A stretch of 57,006 nt of DNA, taken from positions 1-57,006 of the forward strand of contig JAFMCH010000005.1 of the NCBI GenBank assembly GCA_017857875.1, in the 5' to 3' direction. How positions within the stretch are numbered: the stretch's first letter is position 1; every line of letters starts with the position of its first letter. This document shows, piece after piece, positions 6,110 through 24,401 of the stretch. This DNA is from Actinomycetota bacterium (GTDB taxonomy: Bacteria; Actinomycetota; Actinomycetes; S36-B12). A program made the translations under genes and the position numbers. A model generated the notes under the pieces. It saw only the letters and a program-made list of their open reading frames with translations. It searched no databases and was not told the origin of the DNA.

Positions 6110-6423
6110 GCGGGGCGTTTACTCGACGAGGCACCGCGGTCTTGACCGTCGCTGCCTGATCGACGCGTACGACTGCGCTGCGGGCGCTGCGTGGGAGTGC
6201 CGGGTGAACTGGGTGAACCTTGTGAACCGGGCATGGGTCGCTGCATCGCGGCCCGGAAACGCTCCTGGTCAGACATAGAGGAGTGCATATCGATCTGCCG
6301 CGCCGGGCGGCTTCGCCAGGCAGCCCAGCCAAGGGCGGCAAGAGTCGCCCCCAGCGGAATGAGCCACCACAACAGGGCCGACACGTGGATCTCCTTCACC
6401 GATGACATCAGATCGCCAAACAT
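6106..6423 (-). CDS. Small membrane protein, hypothetical
   Basis: One TM helix (LLWWLIPLGATLAALGWAAW); stop overlaps the next gene's GTG; start uncertain. Confidence 0.6.
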   Translation of the reverse strand: MFGDLMSSVKEIHVSALLWWLIPLGATLAALGWAAWRSRPARQIDMHSSMSDQERFRAAMQRPMPGSQGSPSSPGTPTQRPQRSRTRRSGSDGQDRGASSSKRPA

Positions 6424-6564
6424 CGATGCGCGCGAGTCACGCCCGCCGCACCGCGCGCCAGGATACGCCTTGACATGACTGCTCGCCCATCGCGGCCTGT
6501 CGGTTTCATCCTGCTCGTTGGCTAGTCATTGGTGACATCACCGCACCAGGACTACCGTGGAGGC

Positions 6565-14469: not shown

Positions 14470-14745
14470 GTGAGTATCGCCGACCTAATGCCGACCGCAA
14501 CTGAGCCCATCACCATGTTCACCACGTCGTGGTGTGGATTCTGTGTGCGCCTCAAGGCTCAATTGGGCCGCGAGGGAATCGCGGTCCGAGAGGTCGATAT
14601 CGAGGCCGACGAACAAGCAGCCCACTTCGTGGAAAACCACAACGACGGTAATCAGACGGTGCCCACACTGCTGTTTGCCGATGGATCCACGCTCACCAAT
14701 CCGTCCCTGGGTTCGGTGCGCGCCCACCTCGCCGAACTGGCCTAG
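14470..14745 (+). CDS. mrx1: Mycoredoxin (glutaredoxin-like)
   Basis: WCGFC active site, GNQTVPT motif; synteny between nudC and uvrD2. Confidence 0.88.
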   Translation: MSIADLMPTATEPITMFTTSWCGFCVRLKAQLGREGIAVREVDIEADEQAAHFVENHNDGNQTVPTLLFADGSTLTNPSLGSVRAHLAELA

Positions 14746-15746
14746 CGGCGCATCTCCCACTCACCTGGGATCGAAGATCCAAACCAGTGCTCGATGAGTT
14801 TGCGTGCAATCGACACTGCCGGGGGTACCGCGACCGATCCATCAGCGCAAGCTTCCATCAGCTCGTCGCGGGTGAACCATCGAGCCTCGACGATCTCCTC
14901 CCCATCGACGCAAATATCCGTAGACGTCGCCCGGGCGTGATAGCCAAGCATCAGCGACCACGGAAACGGCCATGGCTGGCTGCCCAGATAGTGCACCTCG
15001 CCCACCGTGACGCCTGACTCCTCGGCTACCTCTCGGCGCACCGCTGCCTCGGCGGATTCACCTGCTTCCACGAATCCCGCCAGGGTAGAAAACCATTCCG
15101 GCTGCCAATCCACTCGCCGGCCCAGCAGCGCCCGATCATCACCGTCCACCACCAGCATGATCACCGCGGGGTCCGTTCGGGGGTAGGACTCTGCGGCACA
15201 GGCCAGACACTGACGCTGCCAGCCGGCCTGGCGAATAGCGGTGGGGGCTCCGCAGCGTGCACAGTGCGGATGCTGGGCATGCCAATTATCCAGGGCGACA
15301 GCAGAGACCAGTAGGCCGGAATCGGTTGCGGTCATGCGTGTTCCCGCCGCCCGTAAGTCGCTCCACTGACTGTCAGACGCTCCCCCATCAGCCTGATCGG
15401 TGACTCGAGCGGCAAAATGAGCCGTCTGCCCCACTACGCCGAGCAGCATTACCTGCATGGGACAGTCTGGCTGCATAGCGTCGGCCCATTCGCTGCCCAG
15501 GTCGATGGGTGATCGCCAATCGGCAAGCAAGCCAGAGCGAACGGCTGAGCCTGACCCGGTCGCTGCGGTAACGGGAAACCGGCCTTTCACGACCGGAATG
15601 ACACGCGTGGCCGTACTGCGCCAGGCTTCGGTCAGCCACCGCAAATCTCCACGACGCAGTTCACTGCGGTCGGCCGTGGCTCGAGCCAGGGTGAGATCGC
15701 TCAAGAGTCCGCGATTGAACGCGATTGCTTCACGTGACTCCTGCAC
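14742..15746 (-). CDS. nudC: NAD(+) diphosphatase NudC
   Basis: Zn finger CARC..CLAC, YPRTDPAVI, Nudix box AGFVEAGESAEAAVRREVAEE, SQPWPFP. Confidence 0.95.
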   Translation of the reverse strand: MQESREAIAFNRGLLSDLTLARATADRSELRRGDLRWLTEAWRSTATRVIPVVKGRFPVTAATGSGSAVRSGLLADWRSPIDLGSEWADAMQPDCPMQVMLLGVVGQTAHFAARVTDQADGGASDSQWSDLRAAGTRMTATDSGLLVSAVALDNWHAQHPHCARCGAPTAIRQAGWQRQCLACAAESYPRTDPAVIMLVVDGDDRALLGRRVDWQPEWFSTLAGFVEAGESAEAAVRREVAEESGVTVGEVHYLGSQPWPFPWSLMLGYHARATSTDICVDGEEIVEARWFTRDELMEACADGSVAVPPAVSIARKLIEHWFGSSIPGEWEMRR

Positions 15747-15789: not shown

Positions 15790-17004
15790 GTGGGCGTCTT
15801 CATTCGGCAGTTGACGGGGATTCGCGCCGTGGCTGCCGTATGGGTGCTGCTCTATCACCTGCAGGGCCCGCTCGACACGATCGGCGCCATGTCGATTCCG
15901 GTGCTGTCCGATGTCATTCGAGTCGGTCGGCTCGGTGTTGACCTGTTCTTCGCGCTGTCGGGGTTCATCTTGACCCACACCTATTTACGCAAGATCGGCC
16001 CACAGGCTCACGCGCGCGCAACCGTGGAGTTTTGGTGGCTGCGCCTGGCGCGTATCTACCCCGTGCACTTCGTGATGCTCAACATCGCCGGGATCGCCGT
16101 CGTCGCCCAGGCGCTCATTACCGGGGAAGACAAGGAGCGGTCCTGGCTCAATCCGATCGACTACATCCGCAATCTGCTCCTGATTCAAGAGTGGGGTCCC
16201 GAGCCCGAACGTGGCTGGAACGTGGTCGCTTGGTCGTTATCGATGGAGTGGTTGGCCTATTTGCTTTTCCCCGCCCTGGTACTCGTGTTGTTCATCATGC
16301 ATCGGCGCATCAGTACACCGGTACTACTGCTGGCGTGGGTAGTTGTGATCGTGCCACTGCTCGTACGCGGCTCAGTCGGTGATGACCCGTACTACGGAGG
16401 TGCATGGGGTTCGACAATTCGGGTGCTGACCGCATTCACTGCCGGTGCTATCACCTATTTGATCGTCGTGCGATTCATCGACGAAGACGGCCAGATTCGC
16501 CCCCGCGTCGAGCGACTGGCCACCTCAGTGTCCGTAGCTATGCCCCTGCTTGTGGTGGCTGGCGCATTGTTCCTAGGTCGCTGGGCCGGTGCGCAGCCAG
16601 ATATCTTGCTCACCGATCCCGACGCTGAGCCGCTTCCGCCGTATTTCCACCTGTGGTTGGTGCCACCGCTCATCGTGTGGATCGGCGCACTCGCCCTGTC
16701 GAAGCGAGGCCAGGCTAGATGGCTCTCCCGTGACACCATCGTGCTCGGCGGCCTCATCTCATACTCGCTCTACATGACTCATCTGGTGTGGTTGAGCACG
16801 TGGCGGGCCGGCATGAACGCAATCGGTCTTGAATCAGGGCCGCTCTACGCACTCAGCCTCCTGGCAGCGATCGCCATGGCTTTTGTCATTGCGTGGCTGA
16901 TGTGGAAGATTGTCGAAGAACCGGCTCGTCGTTGGCTGCGCAAGGCAGTGGGGGTGCGTCCGGTAGCCCCCGAAGAAGCCGCCGCCGATCGAAGGAACCC
17001 ATGA
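15790..17004 (+). CDS. Acyltransferase family 3 (O-acyltransferase) membrane protein
   Basis: LTGIRAVAAVWVLLYH, GVDLFFALSGFIL, RLARIYP, WSLSMEW, GLISYSLYMTH, VEEP motifs. Confidence 0.92.
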   Translation: MGVFIRQLTGIRAVAAVWVLLYHLQGPLDTIGAMSIPVLSDVIRVGRLGVDLFFALSGFILTHTYLRKIGPQAHARATVEFWWLRLARIYPVHFVMLNIAGIAVVAQALITGEDKERSWLNPIDYIRNLLLIQEWGPEPERGWNVVAWSLSMEWLAYLLFPALVLVLFIMHRRISTPVLLLAWVVVIVPLLVRGSVGDDPYYGGAWGSTIRVLTAFTAGAITYLIVVRFIDEDGQIRPRVERLATSVSVAMPLLVVAGALFLGRWAGAQPDILLTDPDAEPLPPYFHLWLVPPLIVWIGALALSKRGQARWLSRDTIVLGGLISYSLYMTHLVWLSTWRAGMNAIGLESGPLYALSLLAAIAMAFVIAWLMWKIVEEPARRWLRKAVGVRPVAPEEAAADRRNP

Positions 17005-17477
17005 CGCGCACCCGCCGAGCACTCACCATCACTTTCGCCGCGGCCTTGCTTGCCGTTACCGGATGTGCGGCGAGCACGGACACCTCAGGCGCCGCCGGCC
17101 TTGACTTCGTTCCCGCCGACGTACTCGAGGGCACCTGGGAGGGTCAATTGTCGGTTATCCGATCCAACGGCCCCGATGTCATTACACATCCGGTGCTGCA
17201 ACTGGAGTTCACGACTGTTGATGAAGGACTGTTCCAGTACGACCGCCTTGTAGAAATCGCCGACGGCACCACATATACGTGGACCGATGGTCTCGGCAGC
17301 ATCAGCCCCGAAGGGCGCATTCAAACCACTGAACCTGGCGAGGCCTGGCTCATGACCGGATACCTCGCCGATGACAACACTTTGATCGTGCAGATGAGTG
17401 AGTTTGGCGAAACCGGGCAGGAAGTCACCGTCGACTCCTCGACATTCGCCGGCATCGCCACGCTTACGAAGCAATGA
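17001..17477 (+). CDS. Lipoprotein of unknown function
   Basis: ATGA overlap with the acyltransferase stop, SD AAGGA, signal peptide with VTGC lipobox; acidic, beta-rich body. Confidence 0.7.
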   Translation: MTRTRRALTITFAAALLAVTGCAASTDTSGAAGLDFVPADVLEGTWEGQLSVIRSNGPDVITHPVLQLEFTTVDEGLFQYDRLVEIADGTTYTWTDGLGSISPEGRIQTTEPGEAWLMTGYLADDNTLIVQMSEFGETGQEVTVDSSTFAGIATLTKQ

Positions 17478-17542
17478 GACGTGACATCTGATCACCAGTG
17501 ATTCGCCTGTGAAACGTGTGAAGTCATTAGCTAGCAGGTGTC

Positions 17543-17598
17543 AATAATTTTTCCCAAAAGACTTGCGTTGCCTGACACCGCAGGTATAAAACTAAATT
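17543..17598 (+). promoter_or_regulatory. Promoter with AT-rich upstream tract driving the candidate ncRNA
   Basis: AATAATTTTTCCCAAAAGAC then TTGCGT (17563-68), GACAC in the spacer, TATAAAACTAAATT -10 region (17585-98); exact register ambiguous. Confidence 0.6.
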
Positions 17599-17599
17599 A

Positions 17600-17845
17600 C
17601 TGAGTCGCAAGACGCAGGTCAGATCGGGAAACGACAACTGCTCCGGGGCAGATCCGGTACACATCACATGCTGGTGGTGTGAGAGTCGGGACGCGGTCTG
17701 AGGACAAAGATCGAGCCGGTCTCGCGGAAACGCGAGGCGCGCCCCATTGAACAGCAACGTAGGTGTGGGCCCTAGGTAACTAGGCGGAACGATTGTCGTC
17801 CGAAGGAAAGACCCCTCGAACTCATACTTCGAGGGGTCTTTTCCA
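17600..17845 (+). ncRNA. Candidate large structured non-coding RNA (~245 nt), family not recognised
   Basis: Long-range closing helix plus at least six hairpins, four with GNRA loops; G-U pairs favour the + strand; bounded by promoter and terminator; no credible ORF. Confidence 0.72.
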
Positions 17846-17848
17846 TTT
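17805..17848. terminator. Intrinsic terminator, probably bidirectional (ncRNA on +, adnB on -)
   Basis: 14-bp perfect stem AAAGACCCCTCGAA / TTCGAGGGGTCTTT (17807-20/17828-41), T-runs on both strands. Confidence 0.85.
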
Positions 17849-17910
17849 ATACGACATGACTGGCGCTGCAGCCGGCCGACACACCGAAGGTTGCTCCGCT
17901 GAGGCTCGCC

Positions 17911-20900
17911 TCACAGGTACACGAACTCCGCGTCCACCTGTCCCACCTCAACGCCGGTCAGTGATGCCCAAGCCAGGCGGTAAATCTCTAGCTGAGCCGG
18001 ATCGGCCGAACCGACATGGCCGGTCTTCCAATCCACCACCACATCGCGATCACCACGACGAAACACCGCGTCAATGCGTCCCTTGACCTGTCTTCCCTGC
18101 CACATCAAGACGAAAGGTTGCTCCACGGCAATCGGTGCGCTGTGGGCAAACTCTGTGTCAGCCAATGCCTGTTGAATCGCCGCAAGATCCCATGCCTCAT
18201 CGATGCCTTCATCAGCAGCGCCGGGCAGGTCATCGACATCGAACAATCGCGTGGATCGATAGTGCTGCTCGATCATGGCGTGTATGCGTGAGCCGCGGTG
18301 TGCTGCTGCACTAGGTGCCGAAGGCATCGGACGATCCAACTGCGCCAGGGTGTCCTGGGGGTTTCGAGTAAACCGGTTCAGTTCCGTCACCGACACCTGC
18401 GCTGGCAGAGCGCTCAACGTCGACCGCCCGCCGTCGGTCAACTGCGCCAGCAGCCGCTGGGCCTCATCGGTGAGCGCAGCTGCCCTCGTCTGGGCCAACT
18501 GTTCGCGCACAGCGTCAGCGGCGACTTGATGCGCGCGATGTTGGGGCGATGACATGAGCCAAGGCGCGCCCGCGCGCGCAGCTTGCTGGATTGGATTAAC
18601 GGCACCATCCGCCGGGGGTTGTGCCCAAGCAACGATCTCGTGTCCAGCCCCGATGCACCAATCGCGCACCTCCATTAAGTACGGACCTGGTCCTCGATAC
18701 TCCTTGGCGGTTGCCGACCAACCCGATCCAGTCAATGTCACCGAGCGTTGAGCCCTCGTAACTCCTACATAGAGCAAGCGCCGCTCTTCAATCTCATCGT
18801 GTGCGTGACTGGCCGCGATGAAATCGTCGTGGTCCTTCTTTCGAGGCTCTTGCCTTGGCTCGAGACACAGTCGAGGAAAATCGCGCAGTTCCAACGGTGC
18901 ATCCGGCCGTAGCCCCCATGGCACTACCTCTGCGGTAGTCGGCCACGTCTGTCTATGTTTCCCGCTGGGAAACTCAGCCGCACGCAGACCGGCTATGAAC
19001 ACATGCGGCGCCTCAAGGCCTTTGGCCCCGTGCACGGTCATCAGGCGCACAACATCGTCGCCGGAGTCACTATCGAGATCGGGTCCACCTTCACGCCGAT
19101 AGGCAGTTTCGGTGTATGCCAGAAATGCCGGCACACTGACGCGCCCATCGAGATCACTGAACCCACCCGCGAGTTCCATCAGCGTGTATACGGAACGCGT
19201 ATTTTCTGCAACGACACTCAATGATCCGATCAGGGCTTCGGTCCCTAGTCCGGTTCGAGTCAACACACGCTGCAACAGGTCACGCGGAGCCTCTGCGTGA
19301 TGGTTGCGCAGGTACTTGATCTCGCGCGCTAGTGCGCCGAGACGCTCCCGCGCTTGGGCACTGAGCGACTGCGCAACAGGATCGTCCAAACCATCGGCTA
19401 CCTGAATGCACGCATCGGACAGACTGAGGCGCTCGTGGGCATCTTGCCCGTACACGCTCGCGGCTAAGCGCTCGGATAGATCAGGCGTGTGCTGAACTGC
19501 GGCACGTGGCTGTGTGGCCAAGTGTCGAGCGATGCCACCGAGCGCAGCCATATCGCGCAGGCCGATGCGCCAGCGCGGTCCGGTAGCGATACGGGTGAAT
19601 GCGGCATTCGCGGTCGGATCGACCACTACGTGCAGATAAGCGAGAACCTGTTGCACCAGTGGATGTCCTATCAGGGTTCGCGCACCGACGATTTGCGTGG
19701 GTACACCCCCAGCAGTGAGCATCTGATCAATGCAGGCGAGGTGATCGGCTGTTCGGGCCAGCACCAATACGTCGCGCCACGGGCCAGAATATGATGCGAT
19801 CTCCTGAGCTACCCAGGCGTCTTCATCATCTTGGGTGTTCCAGAACCCGGCTCGCACGAATCCTGGGCCCACATCTTCAGCCGCACAGGTGAGTGGACCC
19901 ACCCCCCGATGAATCGACCGCAACGGCTCGGCCAGTGAATTGGCCAGGTCAAGAATTGCTGCTGCGCTGCGGCGATTATCGGTCAGTGGGTATGTGTCGG
20001 CCGGTCGTTTTTCCTGAGCTTCGGATACTTGTGGAAAATGCTCGGCAAAACGATCGATGTTGTCCACGCTCGCACCCCGCCATCCGTAGATAGCCTGGCA
20101 AGGATCACCTACGGCGGTAACGGGATGGCCGTGCGCGAATAGTTCTTGGAGAAGCAGCCGCTGGGCAATAGAGGTGTCTTGGTACTCATCAAGAAGCACG
20201 AGACCATAGGTAGACCGCAGGGTTTGGGCTACGACCGGGAATTGTCGAACAAGCGACAAACTGAGTCGCAGTTGGTCGGCGAAGTCGACGACGTTGCGGT
20301 GAAATTTCGCCTGCCGAAACTCATCTACAACATCGGCCAGGATGATGCGCTGCCCGGTGCGCTCGATCATCTGCTGACCGATTGACTGCAGCCGCTTGAT
20401 GTCATTCAGGGCCTGAAGTTGTCCGAGAAGTGCAGAAGCATCCGACCGAAGGAGCTCGGTACTCACATCGAGTTCGGCCAGGGCACCGTCTAGGTCGATG
20501 ACTCGATCGACCATCGTGTCGGGGCCGACGGCGAATGACCCCAGATCAGCCGTTGTGGTCGCCACCACGCGCGAGGCAAGTTGGTAGCGATCGATATCTG
20601 ACAGGACGACAGACTTAGATTCGATACCGAGTCGCACTCCATATTCGGCGATGATGCGGCTGGCAAAGGCGTGATAGGTCGACACAGACACCGCGTCAAC
20701 GAAGCCCGGGTCTGGACCTGCACCGGCCGCGTCCAACACCCCTTCTTTGTTGGCCGTGGATAGGTATCCACGGATGCGTTCGGCCAATTCGGCCGCGGCC
20801 TTATTGGTGAACGTCAATCCTAAAATCTCATCGGCACGCAACTGACCGGTCATCACCGCCCAGACAACACGCGCCGACATCACCGCGGTCTTGCCCGATC

Positions 20901-21054
20901 CGGCACCGGCAACGATGCTCGCCGGTCGCAACGGAGCGCTCAGCGCAGCCCACTGTGGCTCACTAGGTGTGAAACCCAGCGCGAGCGACATGTGCTCACG
21001 GGCGTTCAATGACGCGGGGGCAACTGGCGACCGCGAGCGCGACGGTTCGGTCAT
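17911..21054 (-). CDS. adnB: Helicase-nuclease AdnB
   Basis: AGAGSGKT, LDEYQD, VGDPCQAIYGWRGA, TVHGAKGLE; RecB-type nuclease GRIDAVF..VDWKTG..QLEIY; ATG 21054 overlaps adnA stop. Confidence 0.88.
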   Translation of the reverse strand: MTEPSRSRSPVAPASLNAREHMSLALGFTPSEPQWAALSAPLRPASIVAGAGSGKTAVMSARVVWAVMTGQLRADEILGLTFTNKAAAELAERIRGYLSTANKEGVLDAAGAGPDPGFVDAVSVSTYHAFASRIIAEYGVRLGIESKSVVLSDIDRYQLASRVVATTTADLGSFAVGPDTMVDRVIDLDGALAELDVSTELLRSDASALLGQLQALNDIKRLQSIGQQMIERTGQRIILADVVDEFRQAKFHRNVVDFADQLRLSLSLVRQFPVVAQTLRSTYGLVLLDEYQDTSIAQRLLLQELFAHGHPVTAVGDPCQAIYGWRGASVDNIDRFAEHFPQVSEAQEKRPADTYPLTDNRRSAAAILDLANSLAEPLRSIHRGVGPLTCAAEDVGPGFVRAGFWNTQDDEDAWVAQEIASYSGPWRDVLVLARTADHLACIDQMLTAGGVPTQIVGARTLIGHPLVQQVLAYLHVVVDPTANAAFTRIATGPRWRIGLRDMAALGGIARHLATQPRAAVQHTPDLSERLAASVYGQDAHERLSLSDACIQVADGLDDPVAQSLSAQARERLGALAREIKYLRNHHAEAPRDLLQRVLTRTGLGTEALIGSLSVVAENTRSVYTLMELAGGFSDLDGRVSVPAFLAYTETAYRREGGPDLDSDSGDDVVRLMTVHGAKGLEAPHVFIAGLRAAEFPSGKHRQTWPTTAEVVPWGLRPDAPLELRDFPRLCLEPRQEPRKKDHDDFIAASHAHDEIEERRLLYVGVTRAQRSVTLTGSGWSATAKEYRGPGPYLMEVRDWCIGAGHEIVAWAQPPADGAVNPIQQAARAGAPWLMSSPQHRAHQVAADAVREQLAQTRAAALTDEAQRLLAQLTDGGRSTLSALPAQVSVTELNRFTRNPQDTLAQLDRPMPSAPSAAAHRGSRIHAMIEQHYRSTRLFDVDDLPGAADEGIDEAWDLAAIQQALADTEFAHSAPIAVEQPFVLMWQGRQVKGRIDAVFRRGDRDVVVDWKTGHVGSADPAQLEIYRLAWASLTGVEVGQVDAEFVYL

Positions 21055-24000
21055 GTCAACACTTGTCCCTTCGACTGAGCGGGGCACATGCGGGCGAAGT
21101 CACAGGACGAACAGTGGCCGCCTGGCCGCGCGGTGAAGTTCTCATTGCGAATCACCCGAACAGCATCACTCAGTGACTCGAGCAGAAAGCCAGGGTCGCT
21201 GTGCTGGGTCAGCGGTGGCTGACTGACCTGCTTGGGCGATGGGTCATTTTTCCCGGAGTCGACGCTGAGATGGACAAGCGATGCACCCGCCGAAGACGAG
21301 GCCTCGCTATCGGCGCCTAGTTCTTCGGTCAGGGCCCCGGTCAAGACAGCGGCCTGATAAAGCCCCAGTTGTAGATGTTCGTGCACGGCCTGTCCGGTAA
21401 GAGCCTTGGCGGAGGTCTTGAAATCAACGATGTGCCAGGCACCATCTGGTGAAATCTCCAGGCGGTCGATTCGCCCATTGACCGCCAACTGGTCAGATTG
21501 ATACTCCGTCGAAGCGCGATCTTCGCCCGACTGCCCCACCACACCGGTTGAGACCATCGCAGCGAGAACGTCCAGGTCGATCGTTGCGCGGATGGCTACC
21601 TCGCTATGACTGAGCGTGTCGGCGTTTTCACGGTGGTAGTAGCCCAAACGCTCCAGGGCTTCACGAACGCTACGACGCTTTGCGATGGAGTACCACGGCA
21701 CACTGATGCCAAGGTGGGGCCATACATCATCAAGCCAGGCATCCATGGCGGCCATGTCCGGGGCGACTTCGCCTCGGGCCAGCGCCTCAGCCAGTACGTG
21801 CACCAGCTGGCCGATCGGTGCCGCGGTGGTCACCGGCTCGCTAGCACGAGCGTGGCGATCGAGAAACCAGCGCAACGGACAGGTAGTCAGGCTTTCAAGA
21901 CCCGAGGCGCTCATCCGAACGGGGGCATCGGGTGCATTGATCGGCGCGAGTCCCTGGCTCACCGGGAGCACGTGCCACCAGTTGTCCGGGTGAGCGGCTG
22001 GCACCAGCAGGCGTCCGGTGTCATCGGTCTGTCGGGCTAGCGCGGCGAGTTGCTCAGCGGCATGCGTGCGCTCATCGCTGGCGACGTCATCATCAATCAG
22101 GGTGGAGCGAAGTTGCGCAACTAGACCGGCCATGGTGCGCGGGCGTGGTGGGTGAGTGGGCCGGTCATCGGTTGTGATGTCCATATCTGCGATGAAACGG
22201 CTGGGCCGTTCGCCACCGGATGCTCCCGCATCGACGGTTGCCACTACCGTCGTTTCACGAGCGCGAGTGAGCGCCATCACCATCAAGCGACGCTCCGCCT
22301 CAAGTGCCTCGCCTCGTTGGCTTGGTAGGTCGCGAACGGCGGTTGGATCAAGAAGGTCATCGACACCGAGTAGGCCCGAAGACATGGAGAGGTCCGGCCA
22401 GCGGCCTTCGAGCGCATCGAGCACGAACACGGTGTGCCACTGCTGCCCGCGTGCCTGGTGGGCCGTCATGATCGACACGCCCTCAGCGCGCCTACCTCGC
22501 CGCGCGCCGATGGACTCGGCCGCGATGCGCTGACCCTCGATTGCGGTGATGAAGGACAAAGTGCCCACCACCCCGCTGTTGCGCTCGGTCAATCGTGCTG
22601 CCGTGGCAAACAGCGCGACAATCGCATCAAGATCATGATCACTGGCCCGGTGCCCGGATTGGGCCGCGCGGTACAGGCGTTGTGGCCACGCCACGCCATC
22701 ACTGTTGGCAACGGCGTTATTCCATAGGTGCCATAACACCTCAACCGGGCTCGCACCTTGTAGCACCAGCGCTCGCGCAGCGCCTAAGGTTTCGCCCACC
22801 TGGCGCAACTGTCGGGCCGCGGGCAGGTCGTCGAGGCCAGCGGGTAAGCCTGTGGATTCTCCCTCAATCAGCCCGATCAACGCCGTCCGCTGCAGCGCGT
22901 TGAAGGCAGCCGGGACATGGTCGGGCTCGGCCGCGCGCAATTGCTCACGCCAGGCTCGGGCCAGTTGCCGCTGCGTTGCCGGATCGGTAGCCCCGAAGGG
23001 TCCGGACACCAGGTCGGCCACCTGCGTCTCGGTGAGTTGGTCGGGAGCCACCGCGGCCCGCAGTGCTGCCAGAAGTTGAGCCACCGCTGGCTCCATCGGC
23101 AGGGGGAGGTCATCGGCCACTGCGATGACCGGGATATCTCGCGACTCCAGCACACGTCGGGCTTGGGCGATACTGGCTGTGCGTCGGGTAATGATGGCGA
23201 TCTGCGACCACGGAACACCCTGATCGATGTGACAGGCGCGGATATCTTCGGCCACGTGGGCCAACAGGTCGCTCTCGTGTGCATAAGCCCGGACAACCAA
23301 ATCGCTGTCGAGACCCTCGACATCGCGCGCAGCCGGTGCGCGAAGTTGCTGGAGATATCGAGCCGGCAGACCCGGGGAAGAGGCTGTACGCAGAAGCCGG
23401 CGAACCGCGGTTTGTAGGTGAGTGCCACCTCGGTACACCTGCGGCGCAACAACAATATGCTCGTCGAGATCATCAGCCCGAAAACGCTGATCAATGAAGT
23501 CCGCGATAACACGCACATCGGATCCACGAAAAGCCAGAATCTGCTTGGCCGGATCTGCGACGACGACGAAAGTGGTAGTGGCGCCGACAACGGCGTCAAG
23601 CAAACGACCCTGCAACAGGTCAAGGTCCTGGTAGTCATCGACGTACACGGCCTGATAGCGCTGATGCAAAATCGACCGCACCTCATCGCGGCGAGCGATT
23701 GACTCTGCCAATTCGATCAGACCGGAGTAGTCAACGACGTTTTCCAGACTCGCCGTTTGACGTTCGATCTCCGCCAGCCGCTGAAGTGCGCGCAGTAGTT
23801 GTTGTTCGGTAGGTGCCAATCTGTCGCCCACATGGACAGGCTGCTCACGGTCACCCGCAATGCGATAGCTGCTGAGAAATCGTCGGACCTCATTGGCAAA
23901 TCCCACCGTCGACAGGGCGGCTGTGAACTCACTCGGCCAGATCACCGACCGGTCGTCGACCGAACCGAGGATCAGGTCACGGATGCGTAGATCCTCCTCA

Positions 24001-24401
24001 GCACCAGACAGCAGACGGACTTGCGCTTCCCCTTCATCACGCTCATCCACCGACCCGAAGTCACGCACGATGGTGAGCGCGAGGCCGTGTGGACTGGTGA
24101 TCACCGGGAGGACCCCGGTTTCCAGGAATGAACCCACCGTGGCTCGCAACCGCGCCAGAGCCGACCGCCCGGTGGTGAGTGCTAGCACCTGCGCGGGCCC
24201 ATAGCGGCGCACCGAATCGGTTATTGCCGCGGCTAAGGCCGTCGTGGTTCCGGTGCCGGGGGCTCCCAGATACAGCAGTGGCCCACCGCTGTGATCAATG
24301 ACCTGTCGCTGGGCGGCATCCCAAGGGCCCGCCCGTACGTGGGCATCCGGGCTGGTCATCACAGGGGATATTCCAGCACGCCGCTCCGACATCGGCATCA
24401 A
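21051..24401 (-). CDS. adnA: Helicase-nuclease AdnA (degenerate motor motifs)
   Basis: UvrD-like N-terminus with GAPGTGTTT and VDDYQD; nuclease GRIDRLE..VDFKT..QLGLY; Fe-S cysteines CPLRW...CSSCDFARMCP; tandem with adnB; start approximate. Confidence 0.85.
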   Translation of the reverse strand: MMPMSERRAGISPVMTSPDAHVRAGPWDAAQRQVIDHSGGPLLYLGAPGTGTTTALAAAITDSVRRYGPAQVLALTTGRSALARLRATVGSFLETGVLPVITSPHGLALTIVRDFGSVDERDEGEAQVRLLSGAEEDLRIRDLILGSVDDRSVIWPSEFTAALSTVGFANEVRRFLSSYRIAGDREQPVHVGDRLAPTEQQLLRALQRLAEIERQTASLENVVDYSGLIELAESIARRDEVRSILHQRYQAVYVDDYQDLDLLQGRLLDAVVGATTTFVVVADPAKQILAFRGSDVRVIADFIDQRFRADDLDEHIVVAPQVYRGGTHLQTAVRRLLRTASSPGLPARYLQQLRAPAARDVEGLDSDLVVRAYAHESDLLAHVAEDIRACHIDQGVPWSQIAIITRRTASIAQARRVLESRDIPVIAVADDLPLPMEPAVAQLLAALRAAVAPDQLTETQVADLVSGPFGATDPATQRQLARAWREQLRAAEPDHVPAAFNALQRTALIGLIEGESTGLPAGLDDLPAARQLRQVGETLGAARALVLQGASPVEVLWHLWNNAVANSDGVAWPQRLYRAAQSGHRASDHDLDAIVALFATAARLTERNSGVVGTLSFITAIEGQRIAAESIGARRGRRAEGVSIMTAHQARGQQWHTVFVLDALEGRWPDLSMSSGLLGVDDLLDPTAVRDLPSQRGEALEAERRLMVMALTRARETTVVATVDAGASGGERPSRFIADMDITTDDRPTHPPRPRTMAGLVAQLRSTLIDDDVASDERTHAAEQLAALARQTDDTGRLLVPAAHPDNWWHVLPVSQGLAPINAPDAPVRMSASGLESLTTCPLRWFLDRHARASEPVTTAAPIGQLVHVLAEALARGEVAPDMAAMDAWLDDVWPHLGISVPWYSIAKRRSVREALERLGYYHRENADTLSHSEVAIRATIDLDVLAAMVSTGVVGQSGEDRASTEYQSDQLAVNGRIDRLEISPDGAWHIVDFKTSAKALTGQAVHEHLQLGLYQAAVLTGALTEELGADSEASSSAGASLVHLSVDSGKNDPSPKQVSQPPLTQHSDPGFLLESLSDAVRVIRNENFTARPGGHCSSCDFARMCPAQSKGQVLT

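Follow-up and report, generated by a model that had tools for sequence, protein, structure and literature searches.

The 57,006-nt stretch of DNA analysed here (hereafter the window) is taken from contig JAFMCH010000005.1 of an Actinomycetota bacterium (assembly GCA_017857875.1; GTDB lineage Bacteria; Actinomycetota; Actinomycetes; S36-B12), and positions 17599 to about 17845 of its forward strand are almost certainly a real, independent gene of an uncatalogued RNA family. The gene specifies a compactly folded non-coding RNA of approximately 246 nt, and the family to which it belongs is widespread in the class Actinomycetes.

Identification of the RNA gene

The forward strand of 17598-17848 folds at -116.7 kcal/mol, compared with a mean of -85.2 +/- 5.25 kcal/mol for 200 dinucleotide shuffles, none of which folds as well (z = -6.0); the fold of the reverse strand is weaker (z = -3.56). 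Iterated nhmmer searches retrieved 38 full-length relatives that belong to the subtype of the window and are non-redundant; they are 238-268 nt in length and 45-69% identical to the window, and together with it make up the 39-sequence alignment used throughout. Over the full length of this alignment, 87.9% of the cells belonging to the 69 pairs of the proposed fold are paired, against 76.6% after shuffling and 34-42% when the partners are slid along the sequence. Compensatory changes are found at 50 of the 69 pairs, and none of 500 shuffles scores as high. Few of the gap runs in the alignment are multiples of three (406 of 450 are not), which argues against a coding frame. A first-pass annotation, made from the letters of the sequence, had proposed a stand-alone, GNRA-rich structured RNA gene on the plus strand; this is borne out by the fold, by the strong covariation found among its homologues and by the conservation of a promoter in relatives.

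No family in Rfam 15 matches any part of the 57-kb window at the gathering score. Relaxing the threshold to E <= 10 over 17450-17920 yields four weak matches at the level expected by chance, all of them on the terminator or downstream of it, while in 18 homologous loci Rfam recognises tRNAs and one Ms_IGR-5 element elsewhere in a locus, and nothing on the RNA itself. Word searches of the literature and the surveys of the Breaker group, as far as their accessible text extends, contain nothing similar, and no paper was found that prints the terminal hairpin. Judged by these comparisons the family is uncatalogued, in keeping with the earlier proposal that the RNA belongs to no recognised class.

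It is extremely unlikely that the region is not an RNA gene at all, and represents instead a structure that arose by chance, the 3' end of a transcript from an adjacent gene or a protein-coding frame. Frame 0 of the minus strand does remain open for 82 codons across the region, and generic promoter and terminator scans are negative. Such an explanation is, however, contradicted by the 50 compensatory pairs and the 406 gap runs, as well as by a promoter that lies at a constant distance from the RNA in 35 of the 38 relatives and by the recurrence of the element beside unrelated genes.

Secondary structure and the kissing-loop contact

The fold as described here (a 5' hairpin, two domains, a kissing contact between them and a terminal hairpin) is very probably correct. 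Covariation in the alignment supports two multi-helix domains lying side by side, each closed by a helix of its own (Table 1). For the 31 pairs of domain 1, 83.1% of the cells are paired, against 70.5% after shuffling and 31-44% with slid partners; 26 of the pairs are compensatory, and again none of 500 shuffles reaches this level. RNAalifold applied to 38 sequences returned 21 pairs for domain 1 alone, 17 of them compensatory, and 33 pairs for domain 2 with the terminator, 23 of them compensatory. The helix P3 is paired in 48% of the cells of the full-length MAFFT alignment, a low value that is attributable to a one-column shift there. As the register of P5 shifts between subgroups, its strands were compared as cognate and non-cognate duplexes rather than in fixed columns, the mean energies across 38 sequences being -12.6 and -8.1 kcal/mol, respectively.

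The same type of evidence supports a six-base kissing pairing between the loops of P4, in domain 1, and P7, in domain 2. Taken alone, these six pairs are formed in 88% of cells, against 82.8% after shuffling and 11-52% with slid partners; four of the six are compensatory, and on four of five measures none of 500 shuffles is as high. The compensatory loop pairs include AUGUUG/CAACAU, AUGCUA/UAGCAU and AUACUG/CAGUAU. Diverged subtypes likewise have complementary hairpin loops that are spelled in other letters (GUGCCA/UGGCAC, GUGACG/CGUCAC and GUAACG/CGUUAC), as does a subtype from the same genus (GUACCG/CGGUAC). Plain minimum free energy (MFE) folds contain loop-loop complementarity of at least 5 nt in 14 of 100 sequences and in 6 of 200 shuffles; the signal is modest because MFE folds are unreliable for the diverged members. 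The covariation fits a contact within one molecule or between two, and cannot tell these apart. It does offer a ready-made set of mutants and compensatory mutants.

An RNA independent of any dedicated protein, acting either as a ribozyme or by assembling with itself through intermolecular kissing of P4 and P7 into a homodimer or a larger form, is an improbable explanation. The loop-loop covariation would fit an intermolecular contact equally well, GNRA loops and multi-way junctions typify RNAs that adopt a tertiary fold, and kissing loops are said to have a role in the RNA-only complexes of large bacterial RNAs. The accessible part of one recent study does report such complexes (10.1101/2024.12.08.627333). 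At about 250 nt, however, the RNA described here is much smaller than the RNAs that form them, and its conserved junction nucleotides hint at no catalytic core.

Nearly all of the local elements in the first-pass annotation were recovered at the positions where it had put them. These are the hexamers TTGCGT (17563-68) and TATAAA (17585-90), the 5' hairpin CTGAGTC-GCAA-GACGCAG (17600-17), the pairing of CACATCAC with GTGGTGTG (17660-67/17674-81), the hairpin GTCTCGCG-GAAA-CGCGAGGC (17719-38), the imperfect arm at 17741-70 and the hairpin CCTAG-GTAA-CTAGG (17771-84). Its global arrangement was a long-range helix enclosing five arms (17624-37 with 17793-803, continued by 17642-45 with 17785-88), and this has to be abandoned. 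In the 39 homologues its 15 pairs are formed in 39.6% of cells, no better than the 41.4% found after shuffling (25-41% slid), and 479 of 500 shuffles do as well; compensatory changes occur at 12 of the 15 pairs. A hairpin CGGTCT-GAGGACAA-AGATCG had also been placed at 17694-713, where the bases form instead the 3' strand of P2 and the 5' strand of P5. Three of the four GNRA tetraloops then listed do hold, in P1, P6 and P8; the fourth, GCAA at 17754-57, belongs to the pseudoknot-forming loop and is therefore not a tetraloop. Another candidate that was discarded is the partial fold given by RNAalifold for 17 sequences, with a 3-bp long-range pairing that was lost in larger alignments.

Table 1. 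Predicted features of the RNA gene and its promoter, in coordinates of the window
Feature	Position	Strand	Basis or remark
Putative UP-like A/T-rich stretch upstream of the -35 hexamer	17540..17559	+	Read in the window; relatives likewise A/T-rich
-35 hexamer TTGCGT	17563..17568	+	TTG conserved in relatives
-10 element TATAAAAC (TATAAA or TAAAAC)	17585..17592	+	Aligns with TAGAAA/TAGAAC of relatives
Whole RNA (predicted ends)	17599..17845	+	Fold z -6.0, homologue lengths, model match, RNA-library contig
P1, 5' hairpin, GCAA loop	17600-06/17611-17	+	6/7 pairs compensatory; loop GNRA in 37/39
Domain 1	17619..17701	+	Closed by P2; holds P2a, P3, P4
P2, closes domain 1	17619-26/17694-701	+	6/8 pairs compensatory; 86-87% of cells paired
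P2a	17632-35/17685-88	+	4/4 compensatory; register in the window from its own MFE fold
P3	17643-46/17654-57	+	80% of cells paired on the domain alignment
P4, loop AUGCUG	17660-67/17674-81	+	6 of 7-8 pairs compensatory
P4 loop AUGCUG, 5' half of pseudoknot	17668..17673	+	Pairs with 17752-57
Domain 2	17702..17801	+	Closed by P5; holds P5a, P6, P7, P8
P5, closes domain 2	17702-05/17798-801	+	Duplex-energy test
P5a	17716-18/17785-87	+	3/3 compensatory
P6, GAAA loop	17719-26/17731-38	+	5/5 compensatory; loop GNRA in 32/39
P7, loop holds CAGCAA	17741-48/17761-70	+	5/6 compensatory
P7 loop CAGCAA, 3' half of pseudoknot	17752..17757	+	Covariation with P4 loop
P8, GUAA loop	17771-75/17780-84	+	3/4 compensatory; loop GNRA in 39/39
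Terminal 15-bp hairpin, 7-nt loop CUCAUAC (17821-27), then UCUUUUCC	17806..17842	+	Covariation, loop conservation

The terminal hairpin and its invariant loop

In the terminal hairpin, which would serve to terminate transcription, 98% of the cells are paired, seven of the 15 pairs are compensatory and six never vary. The first-pass annotation had recognised this plus-strand hairpin with a stem of 14 bp, which is now read as 15 bp (17806-20/17828-42). The loop CUCAUAC is identical in 38 of the 39 sequences, and is retained even over a compensatory change of the stem (CCCCUUCAA...UUGAAGGGG in genome G063).

Six of the seven bases of this loop match CUCAUAA, the anticodon loop of the tRNA-Met of the same genome, and the shared bases include both the U that precedes CAU and the purine that follows. 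The stem, by contrast, is 15 bp here and 5 bp in the tRNA-Met (CAU) anticodon arm, and neither a tRNA-like cloverleaf nor an acceptor-like element is present in the fold supported by covariation. One reading of this likeness is that of a new class of ornate RNA whose 3' hairpin mimics the anticodon arm of tRNA-Met and engages its readers, with the contact between P4 and P7 clamping the domains together or joining a symmetric dimer. This is unlikely; were it true, the readers could be the ribosomal P site, methionyl-tRNA synthetase or an enzyme that modifies or cuts anticodons.

The invariance of the loop might also be that of a base-pairing small RNA, in which the loop AACUCAUACUU would be a seed for sites such as GUAUGAG around start codons and the body would merely stabilise the molecule. 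This too is doubtful. The 3' loop is the only unpaired sequence that is invariant, being kept over a compensatory change of the stem, and action in trans with no conserved neighbours would suit such a role. However, 7 nt in the loop of a terminator is a short seed, and the genome from which the window comes is not enriched in 9- to 11-mers that could pair with the loop: its 20 nine-mers, including the gene itself, are close to the number expected by chance. Furthermore, 69 conserved pairs, a pseudoknot and three GNRA loops exceed what the carrier of a seed would need.

Promoter and upstream sequences

A sigma-A-type promoter, as predicted from the alignment of upstream sequences, is conserved at a fixed distance from the RNA. 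A -10 element of the form TANNNH, mostly TAGAAA or TAGAAC, is found in 35 of the 38 relatives and ends 4-6 nt, in most cases 6 nt, before the first base of the RNA; TTG is found at a spacing of 17-18 nt from it in 32 of 38. Where a relative has both hexamers (32 cases), A+T makes up on average 73% of the 23 nt preceding the -35 element, the genomes themselves having 52-73% GC; this A/T-rich stretch would act as an UP element. In the window, transcription would begin at A17599, and the RNA would end near 17845.

In several lineages, 2-4 direct repeats resembling TGTGGAC(A/G)A form arrays like those of DnaA boxes just upstream of the RNA promoter (L182, at G063:C1:1888500-1893500, and L040, L061, L082, L086, L112, L113, L125 and L140). 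The motif is presumably the complement of the high-GC DnaA box TTGTCCACA. Sequences of this kind occur at 1.1 per kb upstream of the RNA, compared with 0.24 per kb elsewhere in the loci, and at least two copies are present in 8 of 99 loci. Such repeats suggest that the gene may be controlled by DnaA or by a similar factor.

Distribution and copy number

When the region was compared by BLAST with 61 related genomes, 24 were matched, representing 12 of 33 genera. Nearly all of these matches, which were 84-95% identical, extended over only approximately 40 nt within the 3' hairpin; the 260 nt upstream of each matched hairpin were in every case a GNRA-rich structured sequence. Since BLAST saw mostly the 3' hairpin, searches with profiles and covariance models were needed. 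A pattern scan for the hairpin, with one genome per species, found at least 120 loci, and 128 of 139 bodies lying upstream of such hairpins form a single similarity cluster. Among the pattern matches listed, nearly all are labelled Actinomycetota, and two records of metagenome-assembled genomes (MAGs) are labelled Rubrivirga; the taxa include MAGs of Nanopelagicales, Nocardioidaceae, Kribbellaceae, Jatrophihabitantaceae, Pedococcus, Phycicoccus, Knoellia, Longivirga and others. As far as the searches made extend, the family is confined to the Actinomycetes, and none of 2.9 million viral contigs matches the hairpin pattern.

A covariance model of domain 2 and the terminator, that is the 3' half of the RNA, was designated R1. 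It matches the window at 17696-17844 with 116.2 bits and finds one copy in the window's genome. Within the bacterium's own family it matches 30 of 41 genomes, in 12 of 16 genera. In a sample of the class, 66 of 151 genomes and 45 of 97 genera are matched, with 51 genomes at E <= 1e-7; the count of 66 is an upper figure, as at least two weak matches, in large genomes of 9.2 and 6.0 Mb, are ordinary terminators. Few bacterial RNAs as large and structurally complex as this one are still missing from the catalogues when they are so common; between about one third and two fifths of the genomes sampled from the class have it. Its carriers include cultured members of Pedococcus, Phycicoccus, Knoellia and Longivirga, which places the question of its role within reach of bench work.

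Variation within the family is considerable. Five genomes of the same genus (G001-G005; loci L004-L006, L008 and L010) carry a very different subtype, in which the hairpin alone aligns by BLAST. Some genomes have two or three diverged copies, at times in tandem, each with its own promoter. There are three about 500 nt apart in L182, a further case at G065:C1:1328367-1329946, three loci in G010, and pairs at 914-1159 and 2942-3187 of L078 and at 486-751 and 4668-4933 of L130. In L110 (at about 1934-1960) and on the minus strand of L062, an extra and slightly different terminal hairpin, lacking an RNA body, lies approximately 70 nt downstream.

Genomic context

There are no conserved neighbouring genes. 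The commonest family flanking the RNA gene upstream (TGT) is found at 9 of 85 loci and the commonest downstream (epimerase) at 17 of 87, while in 21 loci from the class-level sample, with 42 flanking proteins, the flanking families are almost all singletons. None of the fetched loci shares the flanking proteins of the window. In one Kribbellaceae MAG, Rfam recognises an Ms_IGR-5 element (L057, 6905-7121 on the minus strand; 85 bits, E = 4.5e-17) that is divergent from the RNA gene and located some 500-600 nt upstream of it.

This variability of neighbourhood raises the question of whether the element could be part or target of a mobile or selfish element, with, for instance, the conserved 3' end serving as an integration site. 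Congeners with a very different subtype or with none, the tandem or multiple copies and the stand-alone hairpins downstream of two loci would be consistent with such an origin, which is nevertheless very improbable. No viral contig among those searched carries the hairpin pattern, and genomes contain one to three copies rather than dozens. No integrase or transposase is among the families listed for the flanking genes, nor does base composition show an anomaly across the region, except for the A/T-rich promoter part. Moreover, structural selection has acted on the body of the RNA and not on the 3' end alone.

In the window itself, the gene downstream (17911-21087, minus strand) encodes a UvrD/PD-(D/E)XK helicase-nuclease. 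Because it is on the minus strand, the RNA cannot be its leader, whichever strand the upstream frame uses. Two overlapping frames compete for the upstream side, one on the plus strand (16893-17477, 194 aa) and one on the minus strand (17085-17495, 136 aa). Both GC by codon position and AT skew point to the latter, and Pfam finds nothing significant in either. The first-pass annotation had described the RNA as lying between two convergent genes in the largest gap of the window. The strand of the downstream gene agrees with this, while that of the upstream frame is uncertain and may be minus; the gap measures 415-433 nt, and a crude map of open reading frames (ORFs) has another of about 419 nt at 6110-6528.

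Genes for an acyltransferase and NudC lie further upstream of the RNA. NudC (14742-15746) is followed by the acyltransferase, the small frame and the RNA gene, and then by two large helicase-nuclease genes (17911-24401), the second of which (21051-24401) is assumed from its position alone to be AdnA-like. NudC next to two large helicase-nuclease genes is an arrangement that is taken here to be that of mycobacteria.

Possible function of the RNA

As a whole, these observations are best explained by an independent gene for a folded RNA that acts in trans and is bound by protein, an explanation that is preferred with a confidence slightly short of even. The mechanism on its own, that of a trans-acting, protein-binding RNA, is put forward somewhat more tentatively. 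The RNA would be made in quantity, given its apparently strong promoter, would act in trans and would bind a protein, serving as its decoy or as a component of an RNA-protein particle; recognition by the partner would depend on the folded body together with the invariant 3' loop. The leading candidates for this partner may be RNA polymerase, as for 6S RNA and Ms1, or a factor that reads an anticodon loop like that of tRNA-Met. Action in trans is suggested by the differences in flanking genes between loci, and the combination of a strong promoter, action in trans, a rigid tertiary fold and one invariant loop points to an RNA that is recognised by a protein.

Several observations weigh against this explanation or against the evidence on which it draws. 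A match at six of seven positions to one of approximately 40 anticodon loops would, by the authors' own estimate, arise by chance about once in 20 cases, and an invariant single-stranded loop would be expected equally of a base-pairing small RNA. With regard to transcription, a 159-nt contig from a sediment metatranscriptome, with adapter-like ends, is identical to 17628-17770 without a single difference. Only two RNA runs contained a small share of the sequence words of the 1.5-kb stretch, and one of them, X2, covers only 17323-17492; the uncovered remainder of the stretch carries no weight in either run. As RNA libraries can hold DNA, one short contig is a hint and not proof. Simple consensus scans for sigma-70 promoters and for terminators, the latter requiring five T in eight, flag no site each, so that the promoter and terminator rest on comparative evidence at the level of the family. 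Finally, the class-level count is inflated by the ordinary terminators mentioned above, and 11 of the 41 genomes of the bacterium's own family have no match, including a 97% complete congener (G006). Such patchy presence is a poor fit to an indispensable housekeeping particle.

Comparison with known RNAs

To our knowledge, Actinomycetes are largely without a recognisable 6S RNA, and Ms1 is present in only some of them. Given this scarcity, a tightly folded and presumably abundant RNA whose recognition loop does not vary could be the missing housekeeping regulator, or part of a new kind of RNA-protein particle. 6S RNA is abundant and has paralogous copies in some bacteria; the likeness to it is that of a small, trans-acting bacterial RNA with its own promoter, whereas the rod-and-bubble shape of 6S is not found in the present fold. 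Neither the window nor its genome contains a match to 6S RNA (RF00013).

Among known RNAs, Ms1 (MTS2823 in Mycobacterium tuberculosis and scr3559 in Streptomyces coelicolor) comes closest in size, host range and gene layout; it is an abundant RNA that binds the core of RNA polymerase and sets its level in stationary phase. In the accessible text of two reports, Ms1 is an actinobacterial RNA of 230-300 nt, transcribed as a single-gene unit from a sigma-A-like promoter with A as its first base, with short hairpins at both ends and a terminator (PMC4191392, PMC9130861). The RNA described here, likewise a stand-alone actinobacterial gene, matches it in size and end hairpins and in its predicted promoter, first base and terminator. 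The Ms1 carriers listed in Table 4 of the second report include Pedococcus, Phycicoccus, Knoellia, Kribbella and Nocardioides (PMC9130861), and the present RNA is found in Pedococcus, Phycicoccus and Knoellia and in MAGs labelled Kribbellaceae, Nocardioidaceae and others. The Ms1 list in Supplementary Table 2 of the same report could overlap with this family.

Despite these correspondences, it is unlikely, though less so than the other alternatives weighed above, that the RNA belongs to Ms1 or is functionally equivalent to it. Ms1 homologues are defined, in the parts of the report available, by an adjacent HAD-IB hydrolase (SerB-like) and by an oxidoreductase, CpaE or similar gene (PMC9130861). 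By contrast, in all five genomes compared the RNA is separated from HAD-IB genes by 45 kb to about 2 Mb, and in the genome of the window these genes are on other contigs. No HAD, PH or CpaE family is among those listed for 85, 87 and 42 flanking proteins, nor among 10 proteins checked singly. For Ms1 the predicted shape is a long rod that has a bubble at its centre, the published fold being itself a prediction as presented in the accessible text (PMC4191392), whereas the present RNA has two branched domains with a pseudoknot and no rod, a distinction drawn from the description of Ms1 and not from its sequence. The two R1 matches inspected in large genomes are the ordinary terminators already noted.

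The HAD-IB loci themselves were also considered. Three HAD-IB genes in the genome of the window score above the family cut-off, and the ORF map has no gap of at least 300 nt next to any of them. The best of the three abuts the next frame on one side, and on the other is separated from a divergent 375-aa gene by a gap of approximately 80 nt (L192, G000:C104, 1404-1482), which holds two TGTGGA motifs; this is an Ms1-type locus, too short for such an RNA. Six gaps from eight HAD-IB regions of five genomes share no similarity, a result that weighs neither for nor against an Ms1-like element there. The lack of both a 6S match and an Ms1-sized gap beside these genes leaves room in this genome for a role of the 6S or Ms1 type. 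Binding of RNA polymerase in the manner of Ms1 is possible, although it is favoured neither by the fold nor by the surroundings of the gene.

No Rfam match to the raiA motif RNA, which is taken here to be RF03072, was found in the window or in the 18 loci, and raiA, comFC and binding-protein genes are not among the flanking families listed. In the available part of its description, this motif is a structured RNA of about 200 nt with unknown function, found in Actinobacteria and Firmicutes and often not clearly cis-regulatory (PMC5737381). The RNA described here differs from OLE, ROOL and GOLLD in being two to four times smaller, in having no Rfam match and in its absence from viral contigs. 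It resembles them in combining a multi-domain fold and tertiary contacts with no known function, and in having been found by comparative genomics; the model R1 could seed an Rfam family.

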